Counted from the first letter of the stretch, positions 28,081-47,776 are shown. The stretch is 64,000 bases of DNA from a virus (IMGVR_UViG_2974696732_000001), one strand, 5' to 3'. Notes: generated from the sequence alone by a model not told the origin. Made by a program: numbers and translations.

Positions 28081-28154
28081 GCGCCGTTGACGGGAACTGG
28101 CATACCTAGTTGACTTAGAATCAACTGCTTGGGAGTTCGACTCTCCCACGGCGT
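28081..28154 (+). tRNA. tRNA with anticodon TAG (Leu-type anticodon, short variable arm)
   Basis: Acceptor GCGCCGT/ACGGCGT, anticodon stem GTTGA/TCAAC with loop CTTAGAA, T-arm GGGAGTTCGACTCTCCC. Confidence 0.6.
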
Positions 28155-28294
28155 ACTCCACAACTACAAACAAAGGATACACTTGAGCGTCTGTCCAAAG
28201 GGCGGTAAGCACGACTGGAAGATATGGTCTGGTAAGTATCGTTGTCGCAAGTGTGGTGAAACAAGTAAGATTCAGCCTACGTAGTAGGTGTTAT

Positions 28295-28368
28295 GCGTCG
28301 GTAGCCCAATGGCAGGAGGCACCAGTCTTAGGAACTGGACAGTGTGAGTTCGAGTCTCACCCGGCGTA
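28295..28368 (+). tRNA. tRNA with anticodon TAG (second, distinct sequence; type I)
   Basis: Anticodon stem CCAGT/ACTGG with loop CTTAGGA, T-arm GTGAGTTCGAGTCTCAC. Confidence 0.6.
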
Positions 28369-28421
28369 CTTTGACTAGCATCCGGAGTTAGTCAAATGCA
28401 TATCAGGTCGCTCCTGGTATG

Positions 28422-28549
28422 AGGAGTATAGTTTAATTGGCAAAACCGTGAAATGCGCTGTCGAACGAGAGATGCTGCCGAGCTAAAGGCGGGTTCTCTA
28501 CTAGTAGATATCAGAGTAACAGTTGTCGGTTCGAATCCGGCTGCTCCGC
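28422..28549 (+). ncRNA. tRNA-like element with an insertion of about 50 nt (about 128 nt)
   Basis: 5' AGGAGTA pairs 6/7 with 3' TGCTCCG. D-arm-like GTTT/AAAC. T-arm GTCGGTTCGAATCCGGC. Far too long for a tRNA. Confidence 0.3.
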
Positions 28550-28692
28550 TAGCCTGCGCTAGATGCAGGAATGTAAGTCGGCAAGGGAGTGTACAATCCC
28601 AAACCGCATTTCTCAACGGCCTTGCAAGGGGCATCGAAGCTACAAGGTGAGAGCGTCTTGGCTGTTCCGGCTCATAACAGGAACCTCCACAA

Positions 28693-28763
28693 TCCGTAGT
28701 GGTGTAGTGGTAACATACCTCCTTGCCAAGGAGGCGTTGCGAGTTCGATTCTCGTCTACGGGA
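28693..28763 (+). tRNA. tRNA-Gly(GCC)
   Basis: Anticodon stem CCTCC/GGAGG with loop TTGCCAA, T-arm GCGAGTTCGATTCTCGT. Confidence 0.8.
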
Positions 28764-28765
28764 CT

Positions 28766-28899
28766 GGTGAATAAACTGGGTGGTATGCTGGTTCGACTCC
28801 AGCCTAGGTGATGGTCACGTGCGGTTCGAGTCCGCGTAATAAAATATTGGGTCAAATAGGGTAGCTCCCGCCGCAAGGTTCGATTCCTTGATATTCACC
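28766..28899 (+). ncRNA. compound tRNA-like element: terminal 8-bp stem enclosing three T-arm-like hairpins
   Basis: GGTGAATA..TATTCACC closing stem. Internal hairpins GCTGGTTCGACTCCAGC, TGCGGTTCGAGTCCGCG and CAAGGTTCGATTCCTTG. Confidence 0.35.
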
Positions 28900-28904
28900 T
28901 TCAT

Positions 28905-28977
28905 GCCCTGGTAGCGTAGTGGATAACGCGGCTGTCTTCTAAACAGTTACAGGCAGGTTCGATTCCTGTCCAGGGTA
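28905..28977 (+). tRNA. tRNA-Arg(TCT)
   Basis: Acceptor GCCCTGG/CCAGGGT, anticodon loop CTTCTAA, T-loop TTCGATT. Confidence 0.75.
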
Positions 28978-29060
28978 CGTTATGAAAATGCTCGGTAGAA
29001 AAGTCTGGAGAGGCCAGACGTTCGAAGACTCTCCAGTCAAAAACAAAATTTGGAGGCGTC

Positions 29061-29252
29061 GTGAACGAAGAGAATGGCACCGAGAATGGGATAATGACAG
29101 AGCTGATTCTGCAAGGAATCCTACAGATTCAGGAAGTTGATGAGAATGGGGATGTTCTTCTCTCGCTAGACTGGGATGCTCTGTACGAATACAATCCAGA
29201 TGTTTACCTGTATCTCAAGACTGCTGAACTGAACGGTCAGATGATACAATAA
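29061..29252 (+). CDS. hypothetical protein
   Basis: 63-aa ORF. Confidence 0.4.
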   Translation: MNEENGTENGIMTELILQGILQIQEVDENGDVLLSLDWDALYEYNPDVYLYLKTAELNGQMIQ

Positions 29253-29256
29253 GGGC

Positions 29257-29412
29257 ATGAAGACATATACAATCGCAGTCAGCCTTCTGCTGTCGGTAGA
29301 AGCTCCCGACCAATCCGACGCTCTTGAAGCAGTCAAGGACACTTTCGGTGAAGGCGAAATCTGCGGAATAGATATCAAAGATGTCGAGGTTGAAGTAATC
29401 GATGAACTTTGA
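29257..29412 (+). CDS. small protein (51 aa)
   Basis: Not in the track. Confidence 0.3.
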   Translation: MKTYTIAVSLLLSVEAPDQSDALEAVKDTFGEGEICGIDIKDVEVEVIDEL

Positions 29413-29590
29413 TATGCTGTCTAATGTTCCTGGAGTTGAGTTCTTCCTCAAGTGCACATTTTGCCCGGAAGAAGCAGACGGAGACTTGACAGTAGAGCTT
29501 GAGCCTGGTATGTTTGTACCAATGCCGATATGTGAATCATGTCTGGCAGAGCAGGCTAAAAACTTCAATATGATTGAAGGCCCGGAATAA
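29402..29590 (+). CDS. hypothetical Cys-containing protein
   Basis: 62-aa ORF with CTFCPEE..CESC. Confidence 0.4.
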   Translation: MNFDMLSNVPGVEFFLKCTFCPEEADGDLTVELEPGMFVPMPICESCLAEQAKNFNMIEGPE

Positions 29591-29599
29591 ACGGGCTAT

Positions 29600-29671
29600 G
29601 GGCGATTAGTGTTAATGGTAGCACGTCAGTTTTGCACACTGATAGAGGGGGTTCGAGTCCCCCATTGTCCA
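29600..29671 (+). tRNA. tRNA-Ala(TGC)
   Basis: Anticodon stem TCAGT/ACTGA with loop TTTGCAC, T-arm GGGGGTTCGAGTCCCCC. Confidence 0.8.
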
Positions 29672-29697
29672 CAACTCCTGCGCAGGGAGGTGTTAAA

Positions 29698-29772
29698 ATG
29701 AGAGGCGATAGTGTAATTTGGACTATCGTGGGAATCCTGCTCATCGTGGCGCTAGTTCTATGGATTCTCTAA
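29698..29772 (+). CDS. tiny hydrophobic peptide (24 aa)
   Basis: MRGDSVIWTIVGILLIVALVLWIL, lying between tRNA-Ala and tRNA-Lys. Confidence 0.25.
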   Translation: MRGDSVIWTIVGILLIVALVLWIL

Positions 29773-29837
29773 GAAGTATTGGCTGGCCGATACGAACCCC
29801 ATCGTATCCTTTGCCCGAGGGTTAGGGACCAGCACTT

Positions 29838-29911
29838 GATTCAGTCGCAGAATTGGTACTGCAAAAGACTCTTAATCTTTGAGGATGTGGGTTCGAGTCC
29901 CACCTGAATCA
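29838..29911 (+). tRNA. tRNA-Lys(CTT)
   Basis: Acceptor GATTCAG/CTGAATC, anticodon stem AAAGA/TCTTT with loop CTCTTAA, T-arm GTGGGTTCGAGTCCCAC. Confidence 0.75.
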
Positions 29912-29968
29912 CGTTGGGTTAGGGGACGCACACCTGGCGAGGTGCCCGCCCAGCTCTACGCATAAACC

Positions 29969-29995
29969 ACCCCAGTCCTTGTGGCTGGGGTTTTT
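29969..29995 (+). terminator. rho-independent terminator
   Basis: CCCCAG..CTGGGG + TTTTTT. Confidence 0.65.
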
Positions 29996-30015
29996 TATAT
30001 GCTACAATTATTGAT

Positions 30016-30567
30016 ATGACTACACCAAAGAAGTACACCCCAAGACCAGGCGACATCGGACTAACCAGAATCGGGGGCCTCACAGGCGTCCTGGTGGGTC
30101 TAGGTCAATTCATCTTGAGGGATGCGAGCAGATACACTCACGTCTTTGTTGTTTTGGACAACGAGGAAGCCATAGAAGCTATGCCAGGTGGAGCAATCAT
30201 CAGCCCACTGGACAAGTATGCTGGAACTACCAAGTATGGAAGTCCACTGGCAGCTTATCTAGACATCAAGTTGACACAAGAGCAGCGAGACGCTATCGTA
30301 AGAGAAGCCCGGCAGCTAGAGGGAGTCCCATACAGCTTCCTTGACTACGTTGCCTTGGCACTAGAACGAGTAGGCTTGCATTGGAAGTGGATTGAGAATA
30401 GAGTCACTTCTAGCAAGCACATGATATGCTCTCAGCTAGCTGATGAGGCTTACAAGAGAGCTGGCGTCCATCTCTTTGAAGATGGTAGACTGTCCCAGAA
30501 GGTGACCCCAGGAGATTTGACTTATGTCGGGTTTGACCAGCGGTACGATGAAGTGTCTGGGCTGTAA
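30016..30567 (+). CDS. papain-like (permuted NlpC/P60-type) hydrolase
   Basis: His precedes Cys (HVFVV..CSQL), the circularly permuted papain-fold arrangement. Confidence 0.4.
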   Translation: MTTPKKYTPRPGDIGLTRIGGLTGVLVGLGQFILRDASRYTHVFVVLDNEEAIEAMPGGAIISPLDKYAGTTKYGSPLAAYLDIKLTQEQRDAIVREARQLEGVPYSFLDYVALALERVGLHWKWIENRVTSSKHMICSQLADEAYKRAGVHLFEDGRLSQKVTPGDLTYVGFDQRYDEVSGL

Positions 30568-30748
30568 CAAAGATAAGCCCAAGAGTGACTTCGGAACGAC
30601 AGGCAACGCGAGGGCCTTGTGCTCACGCTGTAGGTCTGGTAGAGTAATAAACACAAGCCGAGGAAGCGCCCGGAAGTCAAGTAGTGGCAACTGGGTTGGA
30701 GACCTCTTCGAAGGTATTGCTGACGCAATCGGAAGTATCTTCGACTAA
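30524..30748 (+). CDS. zinc-ribbon protein
   Basis: CLGC..CSRC. Confidence 0.4.
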   Translation: MSGLTSGTMKCLGCNKDKPKSDFGTTGNARALCSRCRSGRVINTSRGSARKSSSGNWVGDLFEGIADAIGSIFD

Positions 30749-30770
30749 GCAAGACGCCCGAAAGGGCTAT

Positions 30771-30846
30771 TCCGGTGGGGCTACTATTGGCAGTAGCGAC
30801 GAGCTGTTAACTCGTTTCCCTGTAGGTTCGATTCCTGCCTCCGGAG
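30771..30846 (+). tRNA. tRNA-Asn(GTT)
   Basis: Anticodon stem ACGAG/CTCGT with loop CTGTTAA, T-loop TTCGATT. One acceptor mismatch. Confidence 0.65.
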
Positions 30847-30893
30847 CCTAAGCGACAACTTGACACTCCAACAACATCTGCTAGGATGAACAC

Positions 30894-31064
30894 ATGACAG
30901 AGAACGAAGCGTGGTTGGTTACAGGAACAACTCTTCTCCACGGCAAGTACAGGGATGAAGTTGTGGTTCGAAATGGCCGACTGTGGGTATGGTTCAAGAG
31001 TGATTCTGGAAATGAATGGACTCTACAGTGTCCTAGCCAGATTGTAGTTGACGAGGAGCAGTAA
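30894..31064 (+). CDS. small protein (56 aa)
   Basis: Not in the track. Confidence 0.3.
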   Translation: MTENEAWLVTGTTLLHGKYRDEVVVRNGRLWVWFKSDSGNEWTLQCPSQIVVDEEQ

Positions 31065-31286
31065 ATGCCCTACGATGAAGAACTCGGATGCGTTCAAGAG
31101 ACAAAGAAGTTCAAAGTAACGCTTAAGGAAGCTGCTTGGGACAACAAGGAACACACTGGTCCTCAGCCTGGCCTTAAGGGTGAATGCTTCGAACAGAGGC
31201 TTATCGATGGAGACTGGTTCTACTACATCAAGTTTCCAGGATGGCCAGGTTTTCATATCGCATACGCTCATCAGGTGAGCAAATAA
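31065..31286 (+). CDS. hypothetical protein
   Basis: 73-aa ORF. Confidence 0.4.
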   Translation: MPYDEELGCVQETKKFKVTLKEAAWDNKEHTGPQPGLKGECFEQRLIDGDWFYYIKFPGWPGFHIAYAHQVSK

Positions 31287-31492
31287 GCTTTACTCACGAC
31301 ACGTAGATTCACTAGCTTGATGGGGTTTTACGTCTTTCCCAGCCCCGGCGGCGGTGATGAAGAAGGGTTTAGCGGCCCTACTTGTACAAGAGGAAGACGT
31401 TGAGTACAATCGTGTTAGAGTAAATAAGCGGATGTTGGGACCGCTTCAAGCAAGAGACACCGCTCAAAGGTGGAGTGCTGCATCCCTTCCTA

Positions 31493-31564
31493 TGGCCTAT
31501 AGCTTAACGGCAGAGCGATTGACTGTTAATCAATTAGGTGCTGGTTCGAATCCAGCTAGGTCAG
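31493..31564 (+). tRNA. tRNA-Asn(GTT), second copy
   Basis: Anticodon stem ATTGA/TCAAT with loop CTGTTAA, T-arm GCTGGTTCGAATCCAGC. Confidence 0.7.
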
Positions 31565-31597
31565 CTCCAAAGCACAACCCAACAACAAAGGAAAACA

Positions 31598-32467
31598 ATG
31601 ACATATCTTGTTATTGCAGGTCTCCTCCTGCTCGTTCTGCTCGTCGCAGTCGCTTTCAGCGTCGTAACTAAGCAGAAGGGTGGATACCTCGTTGCTGTTG
31701 GTGTCGGTCTGCTGCTTGCCGTGTTCACTCTCTTCAACTCAGTAACCTCTGTTGGAGCGCGTAACGTCGGTATTCAGACGGCCTTCGGTCGATACCAGGG
31801 AAACCTTGACAATGGCCTCCAGGTCATTGCTCCTTGGTCAGAGCATGAGGACTTCTCAACTCAGGTTCAGTACCTTGACCTTGATGGTGAGAAGTGGGAT
31901 GAAGGCGCAACGGTTACCTTCGATGGTGGCGGTCGTGGTGTGGTTTACGCTACTCCTCGCTGGCGCATCAATGAGGGTATGGCTGGTGAACTGTGGAAGA
32001 AGTACAAGAACTTCGACAATGTTCGTGACCAGCTCGTTAAGTCTTCTGCCAAGGATTCATTCCGTGCAGTTCTGACGGAGTACACTCCTAACGACGCTCG
32101 TACCAAGGTCCGTGAGGTGGCTGCTAAGGTTCAGAGTGACCTGGCCTCCAGCCTCAAGGATGATGGAATCATCATCGATTCCATCAGCATCAAGGACATC
32201 AAGCTGGACGACCGTACCCAGTCTTCACTTGACAAGATTGTTCAGGCCAACAACGACATCGAGCGTTCAAAGGCTGAGCAGGAGCGAGCGAAGATTGACG
32301 CCGAGACTGCCAAGATTCGTGAGAAGACTGGTGCTCTCAAGCCCGAGGCTCTACAGCGTTACTGCCTTGAGGTTGTCAACAACTGGGATGTGAAGAAGAA
32401 CGGTAGCCTGCCTGCTGGCTTCAACTGCAATGGGACTAACGTACCCTTCACGGTCACCAACAAGTAA
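31598..32467 (+). CDS. SPFH/band-7 (prohibitin-like) membrane protein
   Basis: N-terminal TM helix, an SPFH-like core and a C-terminal coiled coil. Start trimmed from 31538 to clear the tRNA-Asn. Confidence 0.55.
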   Translation: MTYLVIAGLLLLVLLVAVAFSVVTKQKGGYLVAVGVGLLLAVFTLFNSVTSVGARNVGIQTAFGRYQGNLDNGLQVIAPWSEHEDFSTQVQYLDLDGEKWDEGATVTFDGGGRGVVYATPRWRINEGMAGELWKKYKNFDNVRDQLVKSSAKDSFRAVLTEYTPNDARTKVREVAAKVQSDLASSLKDDGIIIDSISIKDIKLDDRTQSSLDKIVQANNDIERSKAEQERAKIDAETAKIREKTGALKPEALQRYCLEVVNNWDVKKNGSLPAGFNCNGTNVPFTVTNK

Positions 32468-32510
32468 TAAACACTTTGCAGTGAGATGACTTCAATCTGC
32501 TCTCGCCGTG

Positions 32511-32535
32511 CCCCCGACTTCGGTTGGGGGTTTTC
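32511..32535 (+). terminator. rho-independent terminator after the SPFH gene
   Basis: CCCCCGAC-TTCG-GTTGGGGG + TTTTC. Confidence 0.6.
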
Positions 32536-32562
32536 GGCGTTGAAGGGCCCGGTAGTGAGGGG

Positions 32563-32591
32563 TTGACACCACTCCTTGCTTCCAGTAGAGT
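32563..32591 (+). promoter_or_regulatory. promoter TTGACA-N17-TAGAGT
   Basis: GGTTGACACC..TAGAGTAGTAAC, nearly identical to the 35340 and 45093 copies. Confidence 0.6.
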
Positions 32592-32650
32592 AGTAACAAG
32601 CGAACAGCACAAAAGTATGCTATCCTATTGAAACAAATAGGAGGCAAACA

Positions 32651-32815
32651 ATGAGGTTCGCTTTTGGACTAAGACCAGGACATGTGACCAAGCATGGTAG
32701 GGTTGTAGCAGTGCAGAAGACCTTTGATGGTAAGCACATGCAGTTGACACTAGCTGGTCGGTCAGATAATGTAGTCATAAGCAAGTACACACTTCTACGA
32801 ACGCGGAGAAAATAA
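32651..32815 (+). CDS. small protein (54 aa), KOW-like
   Basis: Not in the track. GHVTKHGRVVAV pattern. Confidence 0.3.
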   Translation: MRFAFGLRPGHVTKHGRVVAVQKTFDGKHMQLTLAGRSDNVVISKYTLLRTRRK

Positions 32816-33211
32816 GTGTCTGAAAACGTTGGCGACAGCGAAGAGACTAAGGCTGAGGCTGAGGTAACCCAGGATGACCGTCCTATTAAGGAAATCATCA
32901 AGGACTCCGCCAAGGCATACGCTCGTGCCAAGGGCCGTCAGGCTTTCTTCTGGGCAGTGAAGAACATGAAGGCTCAGGCGAAGGACAAGGGCAAGGACCC
33001 TAAGTCTGTCAAGGTTCCTACGAAGAAGGCTTCTGCCCTTCGTATCGGTGACCTGACCGCAAAGGGTGAACTTAAGAACAGTCAGGTATCTCCTATCGAC
33101 CGAAAGAAGATGGAGCTGACATTCATCGGTGACTCTGGTGTTGTCTTCGAGACTGTTGACAAGAACACCTCCTACAAGGTAGTATCCCGTAGGGAAGTCA
33201 AGGAACGCTAA
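32816..33211 (+). CDS. hypothetical protein
   Basis: 131-aa lysine-rich ORF. Confidence 0.45.
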   Translation: MSENVGDSEETKAEAEVTQDDRPIKEIIKDSAKAYARAKGRQAFFWAVKNMKAQAKDKGKDPKSVKVPTKKASALRIGDLTAKGELKNSQVSPIDRKKMELTFIGDSGVVFETVDKNTSYKVVSRREVKER

Positions 33212-33230
33212 GCAAGGGCCTTCGGGCCAA

Positions 33231-33302
33231 GTCTCCATAGTTCAAGGGACAGAACAAGACTCTCCTAAAGTCTAGATGCAGGTTCGAATCCTGCTGGGGA
33301 TA
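33231..33302 (+). tRNA. tRNA-Arg(CCT)
   Basis: Anticodon stem AGACT/AGTCT with loop CTCCTAA, T-arm GCAGGTTCGAATCCTGC. Confidence 0.75.
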
Positions 33303-33305
33303 CGG

Positions 33306-33334
33306 TTGACGCGAAGCCCGGTAGGGTATAGAGT
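33306..33334 (+). promoter_or_regulatory. promoter TTGACG-N17-TAGAGT
   Basis: Upstream of tRNA-Ile(GAT). Confidence 0.5.
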
Positions 33335-33348
33335 AGTCAACAGAACGA

Positions 33349-33423
33349 GGGAGCGTAGCTCAGTCTGGTCGGAGCAATGCACTGATAATGCATCGGTCGC
33401 TGGTTCAAATCCAGCCGTTCCTA
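33349..33423 (+). tRNA. tRNA-Ile(GAT)
   Basis: GGGAGCGTAGCTCAGTCTGGTCGGAGC, anticodon stem ATGCA/TGCAT with loop CTGATAA, T-loop TTCAAAT. Confidence 0.8.
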
Positions 33424-33496
33424 CGTAGCAAGGAGTCCATCGCTGTAACCGATGGAATTAAATGCCCGCAATTCAGGAAGGGGCGTCCTAGCTTAT

Positions 33497-33568
33497 GGGG
33501 TCGTAGCATAACGGTAATGCACTTGTATGGCATACAAGCGATTGTGGGTTCAAATCCCATCGACTCCA
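33497..33568 (+). tRNA. tRNA-Ala(GGC)
   Basis: Acceptor GGGGTCG/CGACTCC, anticodon stem CTTGT/ACAAG with loop ATGGCAT. Confidence 0.65.
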
Positions 33569-33792
33569 CGCAGTTTTATCAGTTTCTGGCACAACATGAA
33601 ACTGAACGAGGCAGGTTCTAGCAGACCTTATTCGGATGCAAGGTATAGCCCGTATACCCCTTGCAGCGTACAGACCACATGTGCTAGCATGGTACGTAAT
33701 TGAGGGAGTGCGAGGCTGGTCACCAAACACTCCTATATCATATAAATGAAGAACAAATAATAAATAATGTCCCAGGATATCTTGGGACTCAT

Positions 33793-33865
33793 GCTCCGGT
33801 AGCTCAGTTGGCAGAGCAGGGGACTCTTAATCCTCGTGTCGCTGGTTCAAGTCCAGTTCGGAGTA
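33793..33865 (+). tRNA. tRNA-Lys(CTT), second copy
   Basis: GCTCCGGTAGCTCAGTTGGCAGAGC, anticodon loop CTCTTAA, T-loop TTCAAGT. Confidence 0.7.
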
Positions 33866-33921
33866 CAAAGCGTCATTGCAAGGGCGCTCAATCACATTGG
33901 GGTTCGATTCCCTCTGGTGAA
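33866..33921 (+). ncRNA. tRNA minihelix-like element (acceptor-like stem + T-arm only)
   Basis: TCAC..GTGA stem flanking TGGGGTTCGATTCCCTC, preceded by hairpin AGCG..CGCT. Confidence 0.3.
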
Positions 33922-33992
33922 ACAATGTGGTGTAATTGAGAGGAAAAGGCGGAGGCACATAACAAAGCCTTGCTGTCTAGCCGCTCTCTTAT

Positions 33993-34067
33993 GGTCCAGT
34001 CGCACAGTCTGGTAGTGCAATTGACTTTTAATCTTTGTGGACGTGGGTTCGAATCCCACCTGGACCA
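33993..34067 (+). tRNA. tRNA (anticodon unclear; TTT/Lys or TTA-like loop CTTTTAATC)
   Basis: Acceptor GGTCCAG/CTGGACC perfect, D-arm GCAC/GTGC, T-arm GTGGGTTCGAATCCCAC. The anticodon stem pairs poorly. Confidence 0.5.
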
Positions 34068-34068
34068 C

Positions 34069-34221
34069 ATGAAGCAATGGAATAAGGGCGAGCGAGTGAT
34101 TCGTAACAACAACACCGAGCCCGGAACTGTTGAAAAGCAAGAAGGCAAGAATGTCACTGTCAATCTAGACAGTGGTGGACAGAAGGTATTCGGAGCAAAC
34201 GACCTCAAGCGAAGGCGTTGA
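34069..34221 (+). CDS. small protein (50 aa)
   Basis: Track ORF 33970.. overlaps a tRNA; trimmed to ATG 34069. Confidence 0.35.
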   Translation: MKQWNKGERVIRNNNTEPGTVEKQEGKNVTVNLDSGGQKVFGANDLKRRR

Positions 34222-34391
34222 TGACAACCTACAAAACACATGATAGGGTAGTCGTAACGGCTGGCGTTCACAAGGACAAGCACGGTTCCATAGTCTTTGT
34301 GTCTGGTCAGACTGCCTCAGTAAAATTTGATGACAAGTACCATGGTGGTACCTACTACATTGGTCTTGACATCATACAGCCAGAGAAGTAA
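34221..34391 (+). CDS. small protein (56 aa), KOW-like
   Basis: Not in the track. HDRVVVTAGVHKDKHGSIVFV pattern. Confidence 0.3.
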   Translation: MTTYKTHDRVVVTAGVHKDKHGSIVFVSGQTASVKFDDKYHGGTYYIGLDIIQPEK

Positions 34392-34402
34392 GCTGGCTAC
34401 AT

Positions 34403-34475
34403 GCCCTTTTAGCTCACTGGATAGAGCGATGGTCTTCGAAGCCATGCGTAGGGAGTTCGATTCTCTCAAGGGGCA
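34403..34475 (+). tRNA. tRNA-Arg(TCG)
   Basis: Anticodon stem ATGGT/GCCAT with loop CTTCGAA, T-arm GGGAGTTCGATTCTCTC. Confidence 0.75.
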
Positions 34476-36350: not shown

Positions 36351-36432
36351 GCATGAGCGGCGAAGTTGGAGAGTCGCGGCGGTCTGTAAAACCGTTCTCT
36401 AGGGTGAGTCAGTTCGAATCTGACCTCATGCA
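36351..36432 (+). tRNA. tRNA-Tyr(GTA), type II
   Basis: Acceptor GCATGAG/CTCATGC perfect, anticodon loop CTGTAAA, long variable arm, T-arm GTCAGTTCGAATCTGAC. Confidence 0.75.
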
Positions 36433-36488
36433 CGTACAGTATAATAGAAAGAAGAGGTTGTAGCAGCTCCTCTGGAAAAGCTGCCTAT

Positions 36489-36560
36489 GCATGTAAGCCA
36501 GGGATAAGCTAGGCGGGCCTGTAAAGCCCTACCTCGATGGTTCGAATCCGTCTACATGCA
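36489..36560 (+). tRNA. tRNA with anticodon GTA, type I (second Tyr-type)
   Basis: Acceptor GCATGTA/TACATGC perfect, anticodon loop CTGTAAA, short variable arm. Confidence 0.6.
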
Positions 36561-41450: not shown

Positions 41451-41677
41451 TAAAAACAATGGCTACTAAGACCAAGGCGTTCGAGCTTCGTTCCACCGAC
41501 AAGGCTGACACTTTCAACCTGTTCATCAAGGGCAAGTGGGTCGGTCTGGTCGAGACGAGCAAGGCTCCCAACCGTAAGACCAACTTCCGTCTGCACGGTG
41601 GACGTGGTAACTGGGAGGATGTTGTCGGCACGAAGAAGGACTTCGAGACCTTCGCTAAGGACAAGTTCTCCAAGTAA
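41447..41677 (+). CDS. hypothetical protein
   Basis: 76-aa ORF. Confidence 0.45.
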   Translation: MIKTMATKTKAFELRSTDKADTFNLFIKGKWVGLVETSKAPNRKTNFRLHGGRGNWEDVVGTKKDFETFAKDKFSK

Positions 41678-41699
41678 AAGCCCGGCCCGAAAGGGTCAT

Positions 41700-41773
41700 T
41701 GTCACGTAATTCAATTGGCAGAATCAATGCCCTTGGCCAGGGTAGGTTAGAGGTTCGAGTCCTCTCGTGACAG
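41700..41773 (+). tRNA. tRNA (anticodon undetermined; loop region CCTTGGCCA)
   Basis: Acceptor TGTCACG/CGTGACA perfect, D-stem ATTC/GAAT, T-arm AGAGGTTCGAGTCCTCT. Confidence 0.5.
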
Positions 41774-41851
41774 CAAGTCAATTAGACTTCATAACCTTCC
41801 TCCTGCTATACTAAGACTGCCTAATCCATCAGAGGCAGGAGGATTGAAAAT

Positions 41852-42310
41852 ATGGATTTTGTAGAACATTTGGGCTACCAATACCTAACTGACCTTCTGA
41901 CGGAAATCCGCGTAGGCCAGCAGGGATTGGAGGAACAAATGGCAGACCTAACAACCGAGGTTGCAAACCTCCGTGAGGCAGTAAGCGGTGTCAGTGCACG
42001 TGTTGACGCACTTGTTGGACCACTTACGGATGCCGTTAGAGAGGCACAGGATGCCCTTGCAGCAGAGCGTGAAGCAGCAGCTAATCTAGCAGCCGCAGAA
42101 GACGCTGAGGACGTTGAGCAGAACCGTCAGCTAGATGAGGCTAAGGCCGCTACTGACGCAGCTCTGGCAAATGCTCAGAGCGCAGCAGACGAAATCAGCA
42201 ATGAGACAGCACGTCTTAACTCTATTGCAAAGCCAGCCGAGGAGCCTACTCCAGAGCAGCCAACAGAGCCAACGCCAGATGAGCCATCTGGCCCATCAGT
42301 ACAGCTCTGA
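41852..42310 (+). CDS. Ala/Glu-rich coiled-coil protein
   Basis: 152-aa low-complexity coiled coil. Confidence 0.45.
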   Translation: MDFVEHLGYQYLTDLLTEIRVGQQGLEEQMADLTTEVANLREAVSGVSARVDALVGPLTDAVREAQDALAAEREAAANLAAAEDAEDVEQNRQLDEAKAATDAALANAQSAADEISNETARLNSIAKPAEEPTPEQPTEPTPDEPSGPSVQL

Positions 42311-42426
42311 GTTTGACCCCCCTTGACAACCAGCTTAGCCAAGTGTTAGGCTGGTTGTCTCATGCCGGGGAAGTTCTTTGGTAAGAACAGTCTCTCTATA
42401 GTGTTCATTTGATTGTGCACGGTCTC

Positions 42427-42455
42427 TTGACACCTCCTAGTAGCGCTGCTAGGAT
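42427..42455 (+). promoter_or_regulatory. promoter TTGACA-N17-TAGGAT
   Basis: Followed immediately by the minihelix at 42458. Confidence 0.45.
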
Positions 42456-42457
42456 GA

Positions 42458-42494
42458 CAGAGTAGAAAGGTTGGAGGTTCGATTCCTCCCTCTG
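42458..42494 (+). ncRNA. tRNA minihelix-like element directly downstream of a promoter
   Basis: CAGAG..CTCTG stem enclosing GGAGGTTCGATTCCTCC. Begins about 3 nt after the -10 at 42450-42455. Confidence 0.3.
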
Positions 42495-42590
42495 GCACTT
42501 AATGAAAACTATCAATTCGAAGAGTGGAAGGAGCGTAATGATTTACGACCCTGGTTAGTGTAGTCACTAACTTTGAAGGAGTGAATTATT

Positions 42591-42878
42591 ATGGCAACTG
42601 GCAAGGAGCGCGGCTACAAGGACTGGAAGCTTTCCAAGAACTTCAAGCGCAGCGCTCGAAACTACACTGAGTCCGACACCATTACTCGTGGTCGCAAGAA
42701 GAAAAACACGCGCAAGTGGTGCAAGGGCGTTGAGGGAAGGAAGCACACTCTCGCGCTTTACAACAAGTATTCCTGGAGCCACAGCCACAAGTGTGTTAAG
42801 TGTGGCAAGGAAATCTGGGGACCTGTTAATCGTGATGAGTTTGAGTTCGTTCCCATGCGTTGGGAAGACTTCCACTGA
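42591..42878 (+). CDS. small basic zinc-binding protein
   Basis: HKCVKCGKEIWG. Confidence 0.4.
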   Translation: MATGKERGYKDWKLSKNFKRSARNYTESDTITRGRKKKNTRKWCKGVEGRKHTLALYNKYSWSHSHKCVKCGKEIWGPVNRDEFEFVPMRWEDFH

Positions 42879-43063
42879 TGCAACTCAAGATGTACGCAAT
42901 TGCCTGTGACCAAGCAGAAGCTATCAAAAACTGCTACACAGGCAAGTACACAAATCAACCATTTTGGCCAGAGCACAAAACTCTGGTTCCATATCTAGAA
43001 AAGGCCAGGGAGGAAAACCCTGACCTTCCACTAAAAATCTTTGTCATTAAGGTGAGTGGATAA
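42860..43063 (+). CDS. hypothetical protein
   Basis: 67-aa ORF. Confidence 0.35.
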   Translation: MGRLPLMQLKMYAIACDQAEAIKNCYTGKYTNQPFWPEHKTLVPYLEKAREENPDLPLKIFVIKVSG

Positions 43064-43328
43064 ATTGGCCGGAAACAAGAACAGCCGTAAGAAGTGGCTT
43101 TGCCTTGACTGTGGTGTTGACACTGGCAAGATTGGCGAACACTTCTTTCTCGACATGAAGGTCTGGTCCTTGACAGGGCTTGGGCACGAAGGTATGCTTT
43201 GTGTAGAGCACGTTGAGGAGCGAATCGGCAGGCGTCTTGTTCCGGCCGATTTTACTTCTGCCTACATCAACCGCTTGAACTTCGGGTTCAAGTCTGATAG
43301 GCTCATCTCACGAATCAAGAACAACTAG
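43056..43328 (+). CDS. hypothetical zinc-ribbon protein
   Basis: CLDCGVDTGK..CVEH. Confidence 0.4.
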   Translation: MDKLAGNKNSRKKWLCLDCGVDTGKIGEHFFLDMKVWSLTGLGHEGMLCVEHVEERIGRRLVPADFTSAYINRLNFGFKSDRLISRIKNN

Positions 43329-43336
43329 GAGGACCG

Positions 43337-44434
43337 ATGAAGTTCACCAAGATTTTCTCTCAGGACTTGCTTGACCAGATGGTCAACGAGGGTTTTGTTC
43401 GGGTGCAGACTCATCCGGTTCTCCCTCTGCGAATTCTGAACTACTCTGAGAAGGCTCAGTTTGCGGGTCGATGGAACGCCTGCACGCTTGCGTGCCGTGG
43501 TCTCATCATCGACCAGGACGACAATGTAATTGCTCGTCCTTTCGAGAAGTTCTTCAACATGGGGGACTCTCACGCTGCTGACATCGACTGGGATGCTCCG
43601 GTTGAGGTGACGGACAAGAAGGATGGCTCCATGGGCATCCTTTACTCGATTCGTCCTTACAACCCTGACATGCCGCCTTACGGTCACGAGTACAGCTTTG
43701 CTACCCGTGGTAGTTTTGCTTCTGACCAGGCAATTCACGCTACTAAGCTTTGGCTTGAGCGTTACAAGAACACTGCCGTGCCTCATGACTGGACGTTCAT
43801 TTTCGAGATTGTCTACCCTGACAACCGAATCGTCCTGGATTACGGAGACATGGACGACCTTATCCTTCTGGGTGCGGTCAACAAGGAGCACGGTTACGTG
43901 TACGGTCCTCGTGAGGCTGCGGCTTTGCTGGATTGGCAGGGGCCGGTAACCGAGGTGTTCGATTACAAGAACATTCACGAGGCTGTTGGTGCACCTTACC
44001 GCAGCAACGCTGAGGGTCTTGTTATTCGTTCTGGTGGCAAGATGGTCAAGCTCAAGCAGGCTGATTACATTGAGCTTCATCGACTCATTTCAATGCTTTC
44101 AGAGCGCTCTGTATGGAGTCAGCTCACTGAGGGCAAGACGATTCTGGAGATTTGTGAGGCTCTGCCTGACGAGTTTCACCAGTTCGTCAAGGATGTCGGT
44201 GGCAAGTTGCTCAGTGACTTCGAGCGCATTGAGATTGAGGTGCGTGGAATCTTCCACAACCTTCTTTCTTCAATGGACGAGGGGTTCACTCGACGCGATT
44301 TCGCAATGAAGGCCAACGGAGTTGACCACTACCGCAGCCACATGTTCAACCTGCTTGACGGGAAGGACATCAGTGAGCTAATCTGGAAGCAGTTGAAGCC
44401 CGCAGCCAAGAGTGAGGATGGATACCCGCAGTGA
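43337..44434 (+). CDS. RNA ligase, T4 Rnl1-like
   Basis: ACRGLII and EKFFNMGD match the Rnl1 N-terminal region. Motif I is KKDGSMG (the KxDG lysine adenylylation site). Confidence 0.75.
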   Translation: MKFTKIFSQDLLDQMVNEGFVRVQTHPVLPLRILNYSEKAQFAGRWNACTLACRGLIIDQDDNVIARPFEKFFNMGDSHAADIDWDAPVEVTDKKDGSMGILYSIRPYNPDMPPYGHEYSFATRGSFASDQAIHATKLWLERYKNTAVPHDWTFIFEIVYPDNRIVLDYGDMDDLILLGAVNKEHGYVYGPREAAALLDWQGPVTEVFDYKNIHEAVGAPYRSNAEGLVIRSGGKMVKLKQADYIELHRLISMLSERSVWSQLTEGKTILEICEALPDEFHQFVKDVGGKLLSDFERIEIEVRGIFHNLLSSMDEGFTRRDFAMKANGVDHYRSHMFNLLDGKDISELIWKQLKPAAKSEDGYPQ

Positions 44435-44631
44435 AGCTTTACTTCGTAAGCATCGTTCTGGTAGACGAGCAGAGGCGGGAATACTCTTTCTCGATGACCA
44501 TTCCGGCTACCAGCCGTGAAGCAGCCAAGGCTGCCGTTATCGGAATCGGAATGGAAATCAACGAAGCTACTGGCCACAAGTTGAAGGTCAGTAATGAATC
44601 TCACGCGACAGACACAGGTCGCACAATCTAA
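44431..44631 (+). CDS. hypothetical protein
   Basis: 66-aa ORF. Confidence 0.4.
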   Translation: MKLYFVSIVLVDEQRREYSFSMTIPATSREAAKAAVIGIGMEINEATGHKLKVSNESHATDTGRTI

Positions 44632-44640
44632 GGTGGAAAA

Positions 44641-44778
44641 TTGTCTGACACTACTCGTACTGCCGATGAGGCCGTTTCCAACGCGAAGGTCATTGCGGTT
44701 GCTGTGTGGAGCTGGCTTGCCAGTCATCCTGCGGTGCTTGCCGTTGTGTTCTTCCTGCTTGGCTTCCTCATTGGCTAA
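44641..44778 (+). CDS. small membrane protein (45 aa)
   Basis: Not in the track. TTG start with an AAGGTGGA RBS. Confidence 0.3.
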   Translation: MSDTTRTADEAVSNAKVIAVAVWSWLASHPAVLAVVFFLLGFLIG

Positions 44779-44781
44779 GTC

Positions 44782-44973
44782 ATGAGGAATGTATTTCGGG
44801 CGGCAGCTCAAAAGGCTGTACGTGAAGGTATATGCACACCTGGTATAGGGTGTGGACAACCCATAAGAGAGGAAGACTTCACAGATGATGTTTCTCGTAG
44901 AGAGTCAAAAATCTCAGGTCTCTGCCAGTCCTGTCAAGATAGGGTCTACGCAGACGACCCCGAAGATGGGTGA
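44782..44973 (+). CDS. hypothetical protein
   Basis: 63-aa ORF. Confidence 0.35.
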   Translation: MRNVFRAAAQKAVREGICTPGIGCGQPIREEDFTDDVSRRESKISGLCQSCQDRVYADDPEDG

Positions 44974-45059
44974 AGAAGCATTCAGGTGTTCTGAGTGCCA
45001 GTACCAGTTTCCGTATCATGCGGACAACTGTTCGTACAATATGAACAACAAGTGACACT

Positions 45060-45080
45060 GGGCCCTCCGGGGCCCTTTGT
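45060..45080 (+). terminator. terminator hairpin
   Basis: GGGCCC-TCCG-GGGCCC + TTTGTTG. Confidence 0.5.
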
Positions 45081-45092
45081 TGCGTCTAGGGG

Positions 45093-45121
45093 TTGACACC
45101 ATCCTGGGCATCGACTAGAGT
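45093..45121 (+). promoter_or_regulatory. promoter TTGACA-N17-TAGAGT (pnk)
   Basis: GGGGTTGACACC..TAGAGTAGAGC, consensus family. Confidence 0.6.
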
Positions 45122-45149
45122 AGAGCTAACAACAACGAAGGGAAACAAG

Positions 45150-46055
45150 ATGGCTCAGCTTCTCATCCTCCGGGGCGTTCCTGGATGTGGAAAGTCCACT
45201 TTCGCTCACCAGTGGCTCAAGGAAGGTGAGCGGCGTGCTCGTGTAAACCGTGACGACATCCGTATGCAGTTCTTCGGTAAGGAGACTGGTGTGGATGAAG
45301 ACATGGTTACCAAGATTGAGCACCAGCAGGTAGACATGCTTCTCAAGTCTGGATACTCTGTGGTTGTCGATGACACCAACATCAGGTTCCAGTACATCAC
45401 AGCTTTCGTTAAGATTGCTGCGAAGCATGGCGTGCCTGTTGCAGTAAAGCAGTTCGATGTGGACCTCAAGACTGCCATTGAGCGCAATGCACACCGTGCT
45501 TCTCAGGGTGGTCGTGATGTCCCTACGCACGTCATCGAGAGGATGCACAAGTCTCTCAAGTCTTCTGGTCAGTACACTCGGAAGCACATCGAAGATGCTT
45601 GGGGAACTTCTCAGTCTGTGCAGCCTTACGTTCGGCCAGTAGGCAAGCGAAAGGTTTACCTCTTTGACATTGATGGCACTCTTGCCCAGATGTCTGACAG
45701 GTCTCCTTTTGAGTGGAACAAGGTTGGCAATGACGACCCCCGTCGTCAGGTTGTTCTGACTGCTCAGGCGCTTGCTGAGGCGGGCTACGAGATTGTTGTA
45801 ATGAGCGGTCGAGACTCTGTCTGCCGTGATGAGACAATTGCGTGGCTGGAGTTCTATGACATCCCCTTTGTTGACCTCTTCATGAGGGCAGAGGGTGACA
45901 TGCGTAAGGACAACATCGTTAAGCAGGAGCTGTTTGACAAGCACATTCGTGACTTCTACGATGTTGTGGCCGTCTTTGACGACCGGCAGCAAGTGGTTGA
46001 CATGTGGCGTGCGATGGGCGTAGACTGCTTCCAGGTCGCGCCTGGAGATTTCTGA
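45150..46055 (+). CDS. pnk: polynucleotide 5'-kinase/3'-phosphatase (T4 Pnk-like)
   Basis: P-loop GVPGCGKST kinase plus a HAD phosphatase DIDGTLA..SGR. Start trimmed to ATG 45150, downstream of the promoter at 45093-45121. Confidence 0.8.
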   Translation: MAQLLILRGVPGCGKSTFAHQWLKEGERRARVNRDDIRMQFFGKETGVDEDMVTKIEHQQVDMLLKSGYSVVVDDTNIRFQYITAFVKIAAKHGVPVAVKQFDVDLKTAIERNAHRASQGGRDVPTHVIERMHKSLKSSGQYTRKHIEDAWGTSQSVQPYVRPVGKRKVYLFDIDGTLAQMSDRSPFEWNKVGNDDPRRQVVLTAQALAEAGYEIVVMSGRDSVCRDETIAWLEFYDIPFVDLFMRAEGDMRKDNIVKQELFDKHIRDFYDVVAVFDDRQQVVDMWRAMGVDCFQVAPGDF

Positions 46056-46059
46056 GACT

Positions 46060-46086
46060 GGCGGACCTTCGGGTCCGCCCTTCTTG
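46060..46086 (+). terminator. terminator after pnk
   Basis: GCGGACC-TTCG-GGTCCGC + CCTTCTTG. Confidence 0.5.
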
Positions 46087-46097
46087 GGTAGAAGGGC

Positions 46098-46126
46098 TTG
46101 ACAGCACAGACTGAGCCCGATAGAGT
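46098..46126 (+). promoter_or_regulatory. promoter TTGACA-N17-TAGAGT
   Basis: Upstream of the lipoprotein gene at 46163. Confidence 0.6.
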
Positions 46127-46162
46127 AGTACCAACAACAACGACGAAGGGTCGAAACAAATA

Positions 46163-46639
46163 ATGCGTTCCAACATCCTGGTTCCGGTCGTCCTCGCTGG
46201 TTCAGTGGTTGGTGCTCTGGCACTGACTGGCTGTGCCAATGAGCCGAGTGACGGCTTCAAGGACCGATGCAAGAAGGCTGGCGGTACCATCGAGCGTGAG
46301 AACGACAATACGCTCGGAATGGCTCCTATGGCTTTCTCAAAGCCCGGTGTGCCTGCTCCGCCTAAGCCTGCGGCTCCTGCTGCTAAGGCTCCGACTGCGC
46401 CGAAGGCACCGAAGGTCGAGATTCCCAAGACTCCGAAGCTTCCGAAGAACGACGCTCCGAAGTCTGTGAAGACTCCTTCTGCTCCTCGCACGCCTTCAAA
46501 GGTGAACCCTACCTCTGGAAACGGCCTGGCGCTGGGAAGTGTCACAAAGGGAAAGACCAAGAAGAAGAAGTCAAAGCACGATGACAATGACTTCCTCTGC
46601 GTCAAGGACGGCGAGCTGCTGTTCGAAGAGGATGAGTGA
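46163..46639 (+). CDS. Pro/Ala/Lys-rich lipoprotein
   Basis: Signal peptide with an LTGC lipobox, then low-complexity PKxP repeats. Confidence 0.5.
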   Translation: MRSNILVPVVLAGSVVGALALTGCANEPSDGFKDRCKKAGGTIERENDNTLGMAPMAFSKPGVPAPPKPAAPAAKAPTAPKAPKVEIPKTPKLPKNDAPKSVKTPSAPRTPSKVNPTSGNGLALGSVTKGKTKKKKSKHDDNDFLCVKDGELLFEEDE

Positions 46640-46679
46640 TTGACAGAGTGCGTGCCTTAGTGATAAACTAAGTGCACAA

Positions 46680-46761
46680 GCGCCCATGGTGGAATGGTAG
46701 ACACACTGGACTGAGACTCCAGGCTCGAATGAGCGTCCGGGTTCGACTCCCGGTGGGCGTA
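46680..46761 (+). tRNA. tRNA-Leu(GAG), type II
   Basis: Anticodon stem CTGGA/TCCAG with loop CTGAGAC, variable-arm hairpin GCTCGAATGAGC, T-arm CCGGGTTCGACTCCCGG. Confidence 0.75.
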
Positions 46762-46768
46762 CGTGAAG

Positions 46769-46960
46769 ATGGGAAGCAGAATTCAGGTCAAATATTTCGT
46801 TGACACGAAGACCATGACCGACTATTCTGGCAAGAAAGGTCAGGCGCTCACAAGAGAGCGCGGTGGTAAGTGGGGAGTAAGGATTGATGGTCGAGAAGGG
46901 CCCAATCTAATCATCCCTGAAAGTCAGCTCAAGGAAGTTTCCTGGGAAGAAGGAGAATAA
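46769..46960 (+). CDS. hypothetical protein
   Basis: ORF 46763..; KOW-like. Confidence 0.4.
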   Translation: MGSRIQVKYFVDTKTMTDYSGKKGQALTRERGGKWGVRIDGREGPNLIIPESQLKEVSWEEGE

Positions 46961-46961
46961 A

Positions 46962-47192
46962 TTGCCTGACATGCCTTACATGGAACGAGTCGGACGACAG
47001 TTCGTCTCTGACATGACCGAGGTTCTGACTGGTATCGAACGAATAAATACTCTTCGAGCGGTGGCAAAGCCTACCAATCGAGAGAAGGCTGATAAGTATC
47101 TCAAGCTGTACACTGAGCAGAATCTTCCGCCAAAGACCATGGCGGAGTGGCGAGTGCTCCGTGACGGAATGATTAAAAGGCTTCGAGGCTGA
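46962..47192 (+). CDS. hypothetical protein
   Basis: 76-aa ORF. Confidence 0.4.
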   Translation: MPDMPYMERVGRQFVSDMTEVLTGIERINTLRAVAKPTNREKADKYLKLYTEQNLPPKTMAEWRVLRDGMIKRLRG

Positions 47193-47199
47193 GGCCCCA

Positions 47200-47270
47200 A
47201 CCCGCTTAGCTCAATGGTAGAGCGCTTGCTCGACACGCAAGAGACGTGAGTTCAATTCTCTCAGTGGGTA
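47200..47270 (+). tRNA. tRNA-Val(GAC)
   Basis: GCTCAATGGTAGAGC D-arm, anticodon stem CTTGC/GCAAG with loop TCGACAC. Confidence 0.7.
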
Positions 47271-47290
47271 CTCCCAAGGTAAGGAATGAA

Positions 47291-47491
47291 ATGGCTCTAG
47301 GTGATGCGGTGCAAATTGCGATGGCGAGCTACCAGCTTGTCTATCCTGATGCACCATATGAGTGGCTTGAGAAGGCTGCTAAGGAAACGCTCTATTGGAG
47401 CGCTCGGGTAACCAACCCGACTCTTGAGCAAATGGAAGCTCACGAGGCTCGTGTCCGTCACATGTGTACGACTGGAGAGTGGAATGTTTGA
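47291..47491 (+). CDS. hypothetical protein
   Basis: Trimmed from 47246 to clear tRNA-Val. Confidence 0.4.
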   Translation: MALGDAVQIAMASYQLVYPDAPYEWLEKAAKETLYWSARVTNPTLEQMEAHEARVRHMCTTGEWNV

Positions 47492-47687
47492 CAGTGATAG
47501 CGTCAAGGTTGGGATTCTGGTTCTGCTAGGATTCCTTGGCTTCGTCTTCGCCATCTCTGGCGGAATCGTTGCCAACACTTACCTTGAGAATCAGAAGGTA
47601 AGTAAGTGTATCTCTGCAAACAAGATTTGGGCAGAGGGTGCATGTGTGAACAACATCAACGAACTTCGGTACGTTGACAACGACTGA
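47484..47687 (+). CDS. small membrane protein
   Basis: Trimmed to the internal ATG; one TM helix. Confidence 0.35.
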   Translation: MFDSDSVKVGILVLLGFLGFVFAISGGIVANTYLENQKVSKCISANKIWAEGACVNNINELRYVDND

Positions 47688-47700
47688 CTTGTCAGTCCCT

Positions 47701-47776
47701 GGCTCTGTAGCAGAATTTGGTATATGCGCTGGTCTCAAAAACCGGGTCAATGCGGGTTCGAGTCCCGTCAGGGCTA
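47701..47776 (+). tRNA. tRNA with anticodon CAA (Leu-type anticodon, short variable arm)
   Basis: Acceptor GGCTCTG/CAGGGCT, anticodon stem CTGGT/ACCGG with loop CTCAAAA, T-arm GCGGGTTCGAGTCCCGT. Confidence 0.55.

Follow-up and report, generated by a model that had tools for sequence, protein, structure and literature searches.

Three short-variable-arm tRNA-Leu genes in a Streptomyces phage tRNA array and their place in a wider type I leucine tRNA family

The DNA analysed here is a viral stretch of 64,000 nucleotides (IMGVR_UViG_2974696732_000001, one strand, called the window throughout) and comprises four tRNA-Leu genes, three of which, starting at positions 28081, 28295 and 47701, lack the long variable arm of the type II class to which the fourth (46680) belongs. 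These three are most likely genuine and functional type I (short variable arm) leucine isoacceptors that compensate for the codon usage of the phage. This reading is built on architecture, family membership, identity elements, conservation and covariation, and on the match between anticodons and codons, all observed in the sequences; charging with leucine and use in translation would follow by analogy with the host genus, where a leucyl-tRNA synthetase (LeuRS) charges a type I tRNALeu. Over a 12-kb part, the window shows 100% identity with MF347637.1 (subtracting 58707 from a position in that record gives the window position) and is therefore assigned to Streptomyces phage Paradiddles, a member of cluster BE1, genus Samistivirus, family Stanwilliamsviridae, with Streptomyces griseus as isolation host. 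For this window little is at stake, as the four genes are already labelled tRNA-Leu in the GenBank record and their anticodons fit codon-usage compensation. The window tRNAs add members to an already known kind of tRNA, and it is the breadth of the family to which they belong that is of modest general interest.

Architecture and identity elements

The three short tRNAs had been described in the initial annotation as carrying Leu-type anticodons, A73 discriminators and short variable loops, next to a conventional type II tRNA-Leu(GAG), and every part of this description was borne out by ARAGORN, by the Rfam tRNA model (RF00005) and by a covariance model, R1, described below. The variable loops are UGCUU in tRNA 28081 (5 nt, in both the Rfam and the R1 alignments), ACAGU in tRNA 28295 (5 nt) and GUCAAU in tRNA 47701 (6 nt), all stemless, and none of the three methods gave any of these tRNAs a long variable arm, one with a stem and over 10 nt in length. 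The anticodons UAG (28116-28118), UAG (28329-28331) and CAA (47736-47738) lie in the standard 7-nt loop register with U33 before and purine 37 after, and neither another register nor a hidden long arm came to light. The tRNA at 46680 (anticodon GAG at 46713-46715) is a conventional type II molecule with the D arm GUG-GAAUGGUAGA-CAC and a 13-nt variable arm, GCUCGAAUGAGCG, containing a 4-bp stem. G1.U72, A73 and an encoded C74 are common to all four tRNA-Leu genes, with C75 and A76 not encoded. The four also score above the RF00005 gathering score of 29 (Table 1). Single-sequence minimum free energy folding returned no cloverleaf for 47701 or 46680 and was not used as evidence.

In tRNA 28295 the D arm is GCCC-AAUGGCAGGA-GGC and the fold is canonical, as it is in tRNA 47701, where the D stem has 3 bp (G10-C25, C11-G24 and A12-U23) and the Leu-like D loop reads G-AAUUUGGUAU-A. 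The D stem of tRNA 28081 has 3 bp and one extra nucleotide, so that there is either a bulge at C11 or, in the other drawing, a connector of 3 nt together with a C10xA25 mismatch; its acceptor, anticodon and T helices are perfect, and U8, A14, A15, G18G19, U48, A73 (28155) and C74 (28156) are kept. The Rfam score of this tRNA comes from a run with lax filters, and its absence from the default run is an effect of the speed filters. The two UAG tRNAs, already noted as different in sequence, differ throughout their length.

The premise that bacterial tRNA-Leu is type II, from which the identity of these tRNAs had been called ambiguous, fails for the host genus. Streptomyces coelicolor has five leucine isoacceptors, four of type II (UAA, encoded by bldA, GAG, CAG and UAG) and one native type I tRNALeu(CAA), whose variable loop is A44-C45-A46-G47-C48 (PMC6614811; Fan, Huang, Ji, Wang 2019, NAR 47:6369). 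The single LeuRS of this organism (ScoLeuRS) leucylates both types in vitro, with kcat/Km of 6.25 per s per uM for type I and 14.2 for type II (PMC6614811). It relies on U8-A14, on C74 and on at least 5 variable-loop nucleotides including nucleotide 48; C74 is the key determinant at the 3' end and A73 is dispensable, and charging of type I is conferred by the leucine-specific domain of the enzyme (PMC6614811). The LeuRS of a Streptomyces strain without a type I tRNA also charges type I tRNALeu, and attempts to delete the CAA gene from S. coelicolor failed, so this gene is apparently essential (PMC6614811). Streptomyces is the one bacterial case in which charging of a type I tRNA-Leu has been shown.

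The elements read by ScoLeuRS were looked for in the three phage tRNAs, and each of them has U8, A14, A73 and C74, as well as a variable loop whose last position is nucleotide 48 and whose length is at least 5 nt. Since Streptomyces LeuRS charges type I tRNALeu and the phage tRNAs carry these elements, their identity is not really ambiguous: of the earlier statement, the part that proposed unusual leucine isoacceptors stands, whereas the ambiguity is largely resolved by the published work on the host genus (PMC6614811). The likeness to S. coelicolor tRNALeu(CAA) extends to the Leu anticodon, the stemless 5-nt loop, U8-A14, A73 and C74. The closest loop is that of tRNA 28295, one position away (ACAGU against ACAGC). 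The anticodon of tRNA 47701 is the same as that of the S. coelicolor molecule, but by the published description of the latter the loop, of 6 nt, and the D arm differ; tRNAs 28081 and 28295 carry UAG, which in S. coelicolor is the anticodon of a type II tRNA. The phage tRNAs have G1.U72, U48 and C74 as the only encoded nucleotide of the CCA end, whereas the S. coelicolor tRNA has C48. Animal mitochondrial type I tRNA-Leu is alike in its short variable loop and in A73 and A14 as determinants (PMC9976931), but its lineage is unrelated and its structure floppy. Human mt-tRNALeu(UUR) is not charged by ScoLeuRS (PMC6614811).

A wider family of type I leucine tRNAs

Relatives of the window tRNAs were identified in many phages. 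A 301-nt query spanning both UAG tRNAs matched 334 phage records, and the DNA of tRNA 28295 matched tRNA-Leu genes of 74-77 nt in Bixzunavirus, in cluster L mycobacteriophages, in Gordonia phage Forza and in Felixounavirus; homologues labelled tRNA-Leu belong to phages of Mycobacterium, Gordonia, Escherichia and Salmonella. The anticodons are CAG, GAG and CAA in Bixzunavirus Roots515 and UAG in cluster L phages Faith1 and Snenia and in Felixounavirus. Length (74-77 nt), D-arm motif and A73 are common to these tRNAs, as is a short variable loop that ends with U48, and they share 77-87% identity with tRNA 28295, with the exception of that of Snenia, a 75-nt tRNA-Leu(UAG) that resembles tRNA 28081 and is its closest outside relative. 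The Felixounavirus gene encodes the full CCA, unlike the window tRNAs, and belongs to phages of other hosts.

The D-arm motif TAGCCCAAYTGGYAGAGGY was scanned in IMG/VR and in one genome per GTDB species, with at least 120 loci from each; the counts that follow refer to the matches listed. The motif lay within tRNAs of 74-78 nt with a Leu anticodon in 231 of 231 cases (118 from IMG/VR and 113 genomic), and the anticodons were UAA, CAA, UAG, CAG, GAG or AAG. The viral loci contained 176 type I and 25 type II leucine tRNAs, a ratio biased by the search pattern. In the bacterial set, 88 of 112 loci had a single tRNA according to ARAGORN; it was the motif-bearing type I tRNA-Leu at 87 of the 88. 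The anticodon of the lone gene is mostly UAA (Nocardia, Mycobacterium, Gordonia, Rhodococcus and Arthrobacter), with CAA in Corynebacterium and UAG in Amycolatopsis, Kutzneria and Ilumatobacteraceae. Arrays of tRNA genes from cyanobacteria, planctomycetes, myxobacteria and other groups make up the rest of the loci. No Streptomyces genome was among the matches listed from at least 120 loci, and a search of plasmids matched Gordonia, Mycobacterium and Tsukamurella and no Streptomyces.

The lone genes share the architecture, the D-arm motif and the invariant A73 of the phage tRNAs, with a variable loop of NNAGU or similar; they differ in being single, mostly with G1-C72 and often with CCA encoded, whereas the phage copies are part of a tRNA array. 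In 61 of the 88 cases the flanks aligned to another locus over at least 1 kb, often across genera; a Nocardia locus, the one examined, has genes for an alpha/beta hydrolase, a POT transporter and a Ppx/GppA phosphatase next to the tRNA. Because flanks are shared across genera, the lone type I tRNA-Leu genes of Actinomycetota are probably native to the chromosome.

An alignment of 146 diverse type I leucine tRNAs, including neighbours in arrays without the motif, shows how uniform the family is. No variation is seen at U8, A35, A73 and two bases of the T loop; G1, A14, A15, G18, G19, U48 and C74 are each conserved in at least 90%; and 63 of the 146 have G1.U72. The type I cloverleaf is paired at 98.3%, with compensatory changes in all 20 of its 20 pairs and a covariation score of 0.94, where shuffles reach 0.22 and slid controls about 0.14. 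Type I tRNA-Leu is not a Streptomyces oddity: as scanned here, it forms a large covarying family found in Actinomycetota chromosomes, in the tRNA arrays of other bacteria and in phages of actinobacteria and enterobacteria. This breadth contradicts a 2023 review in which tRNA-Leu is long-armed everywhere except in animal mitochondria (PMC9976931), and it is relevant to isotype scoring of phage and actinobacterial tRNAs and to the design of orthogonal Leu tRNA/synthetase pairs. In the literature searched, the term 'type I tRNALeu' was found only in Fan et al. 2019, and no paper was found that describes a type I tRNA-Leu in a phage.

The covariance model R1 was built from these 146 sequences and the window was scanned with it without filters. 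Among about 46 window tRNAs, 28295 ranked first, 47701 second and 28081 fourth (scores in Table 1); the third is the tRNA-Ile(UAU) at 17331 and all the remaining tRNAs scored 54.4 bits or less. Members of the family have a 3-bp D stem, the D loop N-A14-A15-Y-U-G18-G19-Y-A-G-A, U48 and A73, all clearly present in tRNA 28295, which by its sequence is an unambiguous member. The other two keep A14, A15, G18G19, U48 and A73 of the consensus and are best described as divergent members, with small margins on R1 and D stems off the consensus. With the anticodon masked, the nearest neighbours of tRNA 28295 among 1,366 tRNAs of the fetched loci were type I Leu in 25 of 25 cases. For 28081 and 47701 this comparison was weak, the set being 25% Leu by construction and Gln and Lys controls also drawing many Leu neighbours, and for this reason it was replaced by the covariance model.

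The acceptor stem of the tRNA-Ile(UAU), GCGCCAG...CUGGCGU followed by A and C, is close to those of 28081 and 46680, and this tRNA may have been derived from a leucine tRNA by a change at anticodon position 36. An origin of the leucine tRNAs from tRNA-Gln, which has a similar D arm and an anticodon differing at base 35, was considered and rejected: the phage tRNA-Gln has U1-A72 and G73, and the leucine tRNAs have G1.U72 and A73.

The initial annotation had also raised mischarging or recoding, in which a non-Leu synthetase would charge the type I body and place another residue at CUA, CUG or UUG. This is most improbable. The idea draws on the textbook expectation of a type II bacterial tRNA-Leu, as restated in the review (PMC9976931), and on the tRNA-Ile(UAU), whose score on R1 is nearly as high, so that the body is not wholly isotype-exclusive; but the host genus charges its own type I tRNA-Leu with leucine (PMC6614811), and the family motif accompanies Leu anticodons only (the 231 of 231 cases above), on bodies with an invariant A73. 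G3:U70, which would point to Ala, and a long arm, which would point to Ser, are both absent, and synthetases that read the anticodon would reject UAG or CAA. The anticodons are all sense Leu anticodons, and the bodies match the leucine determinants of E. coli, namely A73, A14, A15-U48 and G18G19 (PMC9976931). Two more results count against recoding: tRNA-Leu(UAG) genes of type I and of type II replace each other at one locus in close relatives (next section), and CUA and UUG make up about 27% of the Leu codons in phage open reading frames (ORFs), so that recoding would alter proteins proteome-wide. The three tRNAs are accordingly best read as leucine isoacceptors.

The Felixounavirus copies deserve separate mention. 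Among phages of E. coli, Salmonella and Shigella, those of Felixounavirus have a type I tRNA-Leu(UAG) homologue whose CCA is encoded (an example is given in Table 1), and about 90 other enterobacterial phage records have one as well. A similar gene was found in none of 5,426 complete E. coli genomes. Given that the type I tRNALeu of S. coelicolor is not charged by E. coli LeuRS (PMC6614811), the question arises of which enzyme charges these copies.

Conservation, codon usage and proposed function

The genes were compared with their counterparts in related phages. Paradiddles, Tribute, Larnav and Evy have one and the same sequence for the gene at 28081 (100% identity), while the surrounding 301-nt stretch is 84-93% identical; in Angela, Bmoc and Daubenski the same slot holds a different, canonical type I tRNA-Leu(UAG). 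In the slot of 28295 most relatives have a type I gene that is almost the same; in Larnav the type I gene there has diverged strongly, with compensatory changes, and Bmoc, LukeCage and Enygma have a type II tRNA-Leu(UAG) (Table 1). The type II copy of Bmoc shares its anticodon loop with 28295 and is nearly identical to it in the acceptor stem, as if the D arm and the variable region alone had been exchanged. The sharing of this slot indicates that type I and type II forms replace each other for one anticodon within one phage family. DNA similar to 47701 is present in 77 Streptomyces phage records; in its orthologues from nine phages CAA and G1.U72 are invariant, a loop of 6-7 nt is kept, 99.4% of the pairs are formed and 9 of 20 pairs show compensatory changes, and all five pairs of the anticodon stem covary.

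These patterns bear on whether one or more of the genes, especially 28081, could be decaying duplicates without a role in translation, which is improbable, if less so than recoding. The D stem of 28081 with its extra nucleotide or mismatch, its Rfam score, the lowest of the four, and its escape from the default filters would be expected of a decaying copy; a second Leu(UAG) gene lies 139 nt downstream, and other degenerate tRNA-like sequences are present in the window (36489, 42364 and 15120). Decay is at odds with the identity of 28081 in four phages within a stretch that varies, next to a UAG tRNA strongly diverged in Larnav, and with its perfect acceptor, anticodon and T helices and conserved positions, as well as with the canonical folds of 28295 and 47701 and the covariation of the latter across phages. 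With helices intact, 28081 invariant and 47701 compensatory, the three genes are, judged from these comparisons, under selection and not pseudogenes; the irregular D arm leaves some doubt, and hence a small probability of the pseudogene reading, for 28081 alone.

Codon usage was counted in a greedy set of 116 non-overlapping plus-strand ORFs covering 81% of the window. The 1,337 Leu codons are CTT (29.5%), CTG (22.8%), CTC (19.3%), CTA (14.0%), TTG (13.5%) and TTA (0.9%). The last amounts to 12 codons despite a G+C content of about 49%, and ARAGORN found no tRNA-Leu(UAA) in the window; the scarcity of TTA fits avoidance of a codon that needs the developmentally regulated bldA tRNA of the host. 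Streptomyces genomes have about 72% G+C, and CUA, CUU and UUA are very rare in them. The whole genome of S. coelicolor contains 6,706 UUG and 145 UUA codons (PMC6614811). The leucine set of the phage, with UAG twice, CAA and GAG, corresponds to codons used often by the phage and seldom by the host (CUA, CUU and UUG).

Arrays of tRNA genes that compensate for codon usage are a feature of T4 and of cluster C mycobacteriophages such as Bxz1, and the functional class assigned here is the same: in all of these cases the array belongs to a large lytic phage with a G+C content far from that of its host and the anticodons serve host-rare codons, with no difference in principle between those sets and the window tRNAs. 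In the proposed sequence of events the three tRNAs would be transcribed within the phage array of about 45 tRNAs, and the host CCA-adding enzyme would complete their 3' ends, as C74 alone is encoded. Streptomyces LeuRS would then charge them with leucine, reading neither the anticodon nor a long arm but depending on U8-A14 and C74 and on a variable loop no shorter than 5 nt. The charged tRNAs would decode CUA (probably also CUG) and UUG, and Leu(GAG) would add CUU and CUC, the set as a whole covering the Leu codons frequent in a phage of 49% G+C.

A different main role, evasion of host defences, is unlikely, though it is the strongest of the alternatives. It supposes that the phages deliberately carry the type I form of isoacceptors that are type II in the host (UAG), the shape escaping nucleases aimed at type II tRNA-Leu, with leucine charging unchanged. 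The suggestion that the tRNA set may serve codon usage or counter tRNA-degrading defences was made in the announcement of the BE1 genomes (PMC5764925), and the window encodes an RNA ligase and a polynucleotide kinase that could repair tRNA. The UAG isoacceptor of S. coelicolor is type II (PMC6614811), so that the phage form differs from it in shape, the two versions swap at one locus among relatives, and human SLFN11, described as targeting type II tRNAs (PMC11615386), offers a possible analogy. On the other side, no Streptomyces nuclease specific to type II tRNA-Leu is known, codon usage alone explains the anticodon set, Paradiddles keeps a type II Leu(GAG), and type I tRNA-Leu is apparently native in many Actinomycetota, where evasion is not needed. 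Evasion would in any case add to leucine decoding and not replace it. If it did operate, the type I/II swaps in Stanwilliamsviridae would be a record of an arms race, and the type I tRNA-Leu(UAG) of Felixounavirus would represent the same strategy, given the absence of such a gene from the E. coli genomes searched and the failure of E. coli LeuRS on the Streptomyces type I tRNA.

Several points weigh against reading the three genes as codon-compensating leucine isoacceptors. In M. tuberculosis, Arg921 of LeuRS has been proposed to touch the long arm (PMC3561953), so not every actinobacterial LeuRS need tolerate a type I tRNA. The charging demonstrated in S. coelicolor covers a CAA isoacceptor with a 5-nt loop only (PMC6614811), and by that comparison the 6-nt loop of 47701 and the irregular D arm of 28081 would fall outside the charged example; Paradiddles, besides, was isolated on S. 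griseus, whereas the precedent is S. coelicolor. The margins of 47701 and 28081 over other isotypes on R1 are small, with tRNA-Ile(UAU) at 60.2 bits, and the training set of the model was chosen partly by the D-arm motif. Finally, the ORF set used for codon counts is mechanical rather than curated.

The tRNA array and other tRNA-like sequences of the window

The window contains 43 tRNA genes and one tmRNA according to ARAGORN, all on the plus strand, and the Rfam scan added a few weaker tRNA-like matches. The BE1 announcement reports 43-48 tRNAs per phage, and tRNA-Leu architecture is absent from it (PMC5764925). Between 13003 and 58222, C74 is encoded and C75 and A76 are not in nearly every tRNA gene. 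The G1.U72 wobble followed by A73 is found in both tRNA-Glu, Val(UAC), Arg(UCU), Ile(UAU), Ile(GAU), Lys(CUU)-2 and Met-1, in addition to all four tRNA-Leu. The annotated RNA ligase and polynucleotide kinase genes, whose products could together act in tRNA repair, are listed in Table 1 with the other features.

Table 1. Leucine tRNA genes of the window, type II and Felixounavirus counterparts in other phages, and other features mentioned in the text (positions are those of the window unless a record or locus is named)
Feature	Position	Length (nt)	Strand	Support or remark
tRNA-Leu(UAG), type I, irregular D arm	28081-28156	76	+	ARAGORN; Rfam RF00005 41.2 bits; R1 59.3 bits
tRNA-Leu(UAG), type I, canonical family member	28295-28369	75	+	ARAGORN; Rfam 55.2 bits; R1 76.3 bits
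tRNA-Leu(CAA), type I	47701-47777	77	+	ARAGORN; Rfam 52.4 bits; R1 61.8 bits
tRNA-Leu(GAG), conventional type II	46680-46762	83	+	ARAGORN; Rfam 56.4 bits; sequence and fold
tRNA-Ile(UAU)	17331-17405		+	R1 60.2 bits
Type II Leu(UAG) in the 28295 slot, Bmoc	L251 546-625	80		
Type II Leu(UAG) in the 28295 slot, LukeCage	L254 591-672	82		
Type II Leu(UAG) in the 28295 slot, Enygma	L257 473-554	82		
Felixounavirus-type Leu(UAG), Escherichia typing phage 1	KP869100 13033-13109 (L006 294-370)			
RNA ligase (annotated)	43337-44434 (record 102044-103141)		+	Inside tRNA array, just upstream of Leu(GAG)
Polynucleotide kinase (annotated)	45150-46055 (record 103857-104762)		+	Inside tRNA array, just upstream of Leu(GAG)
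tRNA-Tyr(GUA), type II	36351-36433	83		Normal
tRNA-Tyr(GUA), short variable loop	36489-36561	72-73	+	Rfam 32 bits; ARAGORN at relaxed threshold only; annotated in GenBank
tRNA-like sequence	42364-42497		+	Rfam 32.8 bits; ARAGORN with introns, 'His(atg)'
tRNA-like sequence	15120-15196		+	Rfam 30.8 bits; ARAGORN with introns, overlapping coordinates, 'Phe(aaa)'

A short tRNA-Tyr(GUA) is located at 36489, 55 nt downstream of the normal type II tRNA-Tyr(GUA), and the two genes share the acceptor ends GCAUG...CAUGC-A. In the short gene U8 is replaced by A8 and the D stem is reduced to 2-3 bp; it is a second short version of a normally type II bacterial tRNA and may be degenerate. The matches at 42364 and 15120 were not called by ARAGORN at default settings. 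When introns are allowed, the former has a 56-nt insertion in the anticodon loop and the latter a 10-nt insertion and an imperfect acceptor stem, and both are probably degenerate or interrupted tRNA-like sequences.

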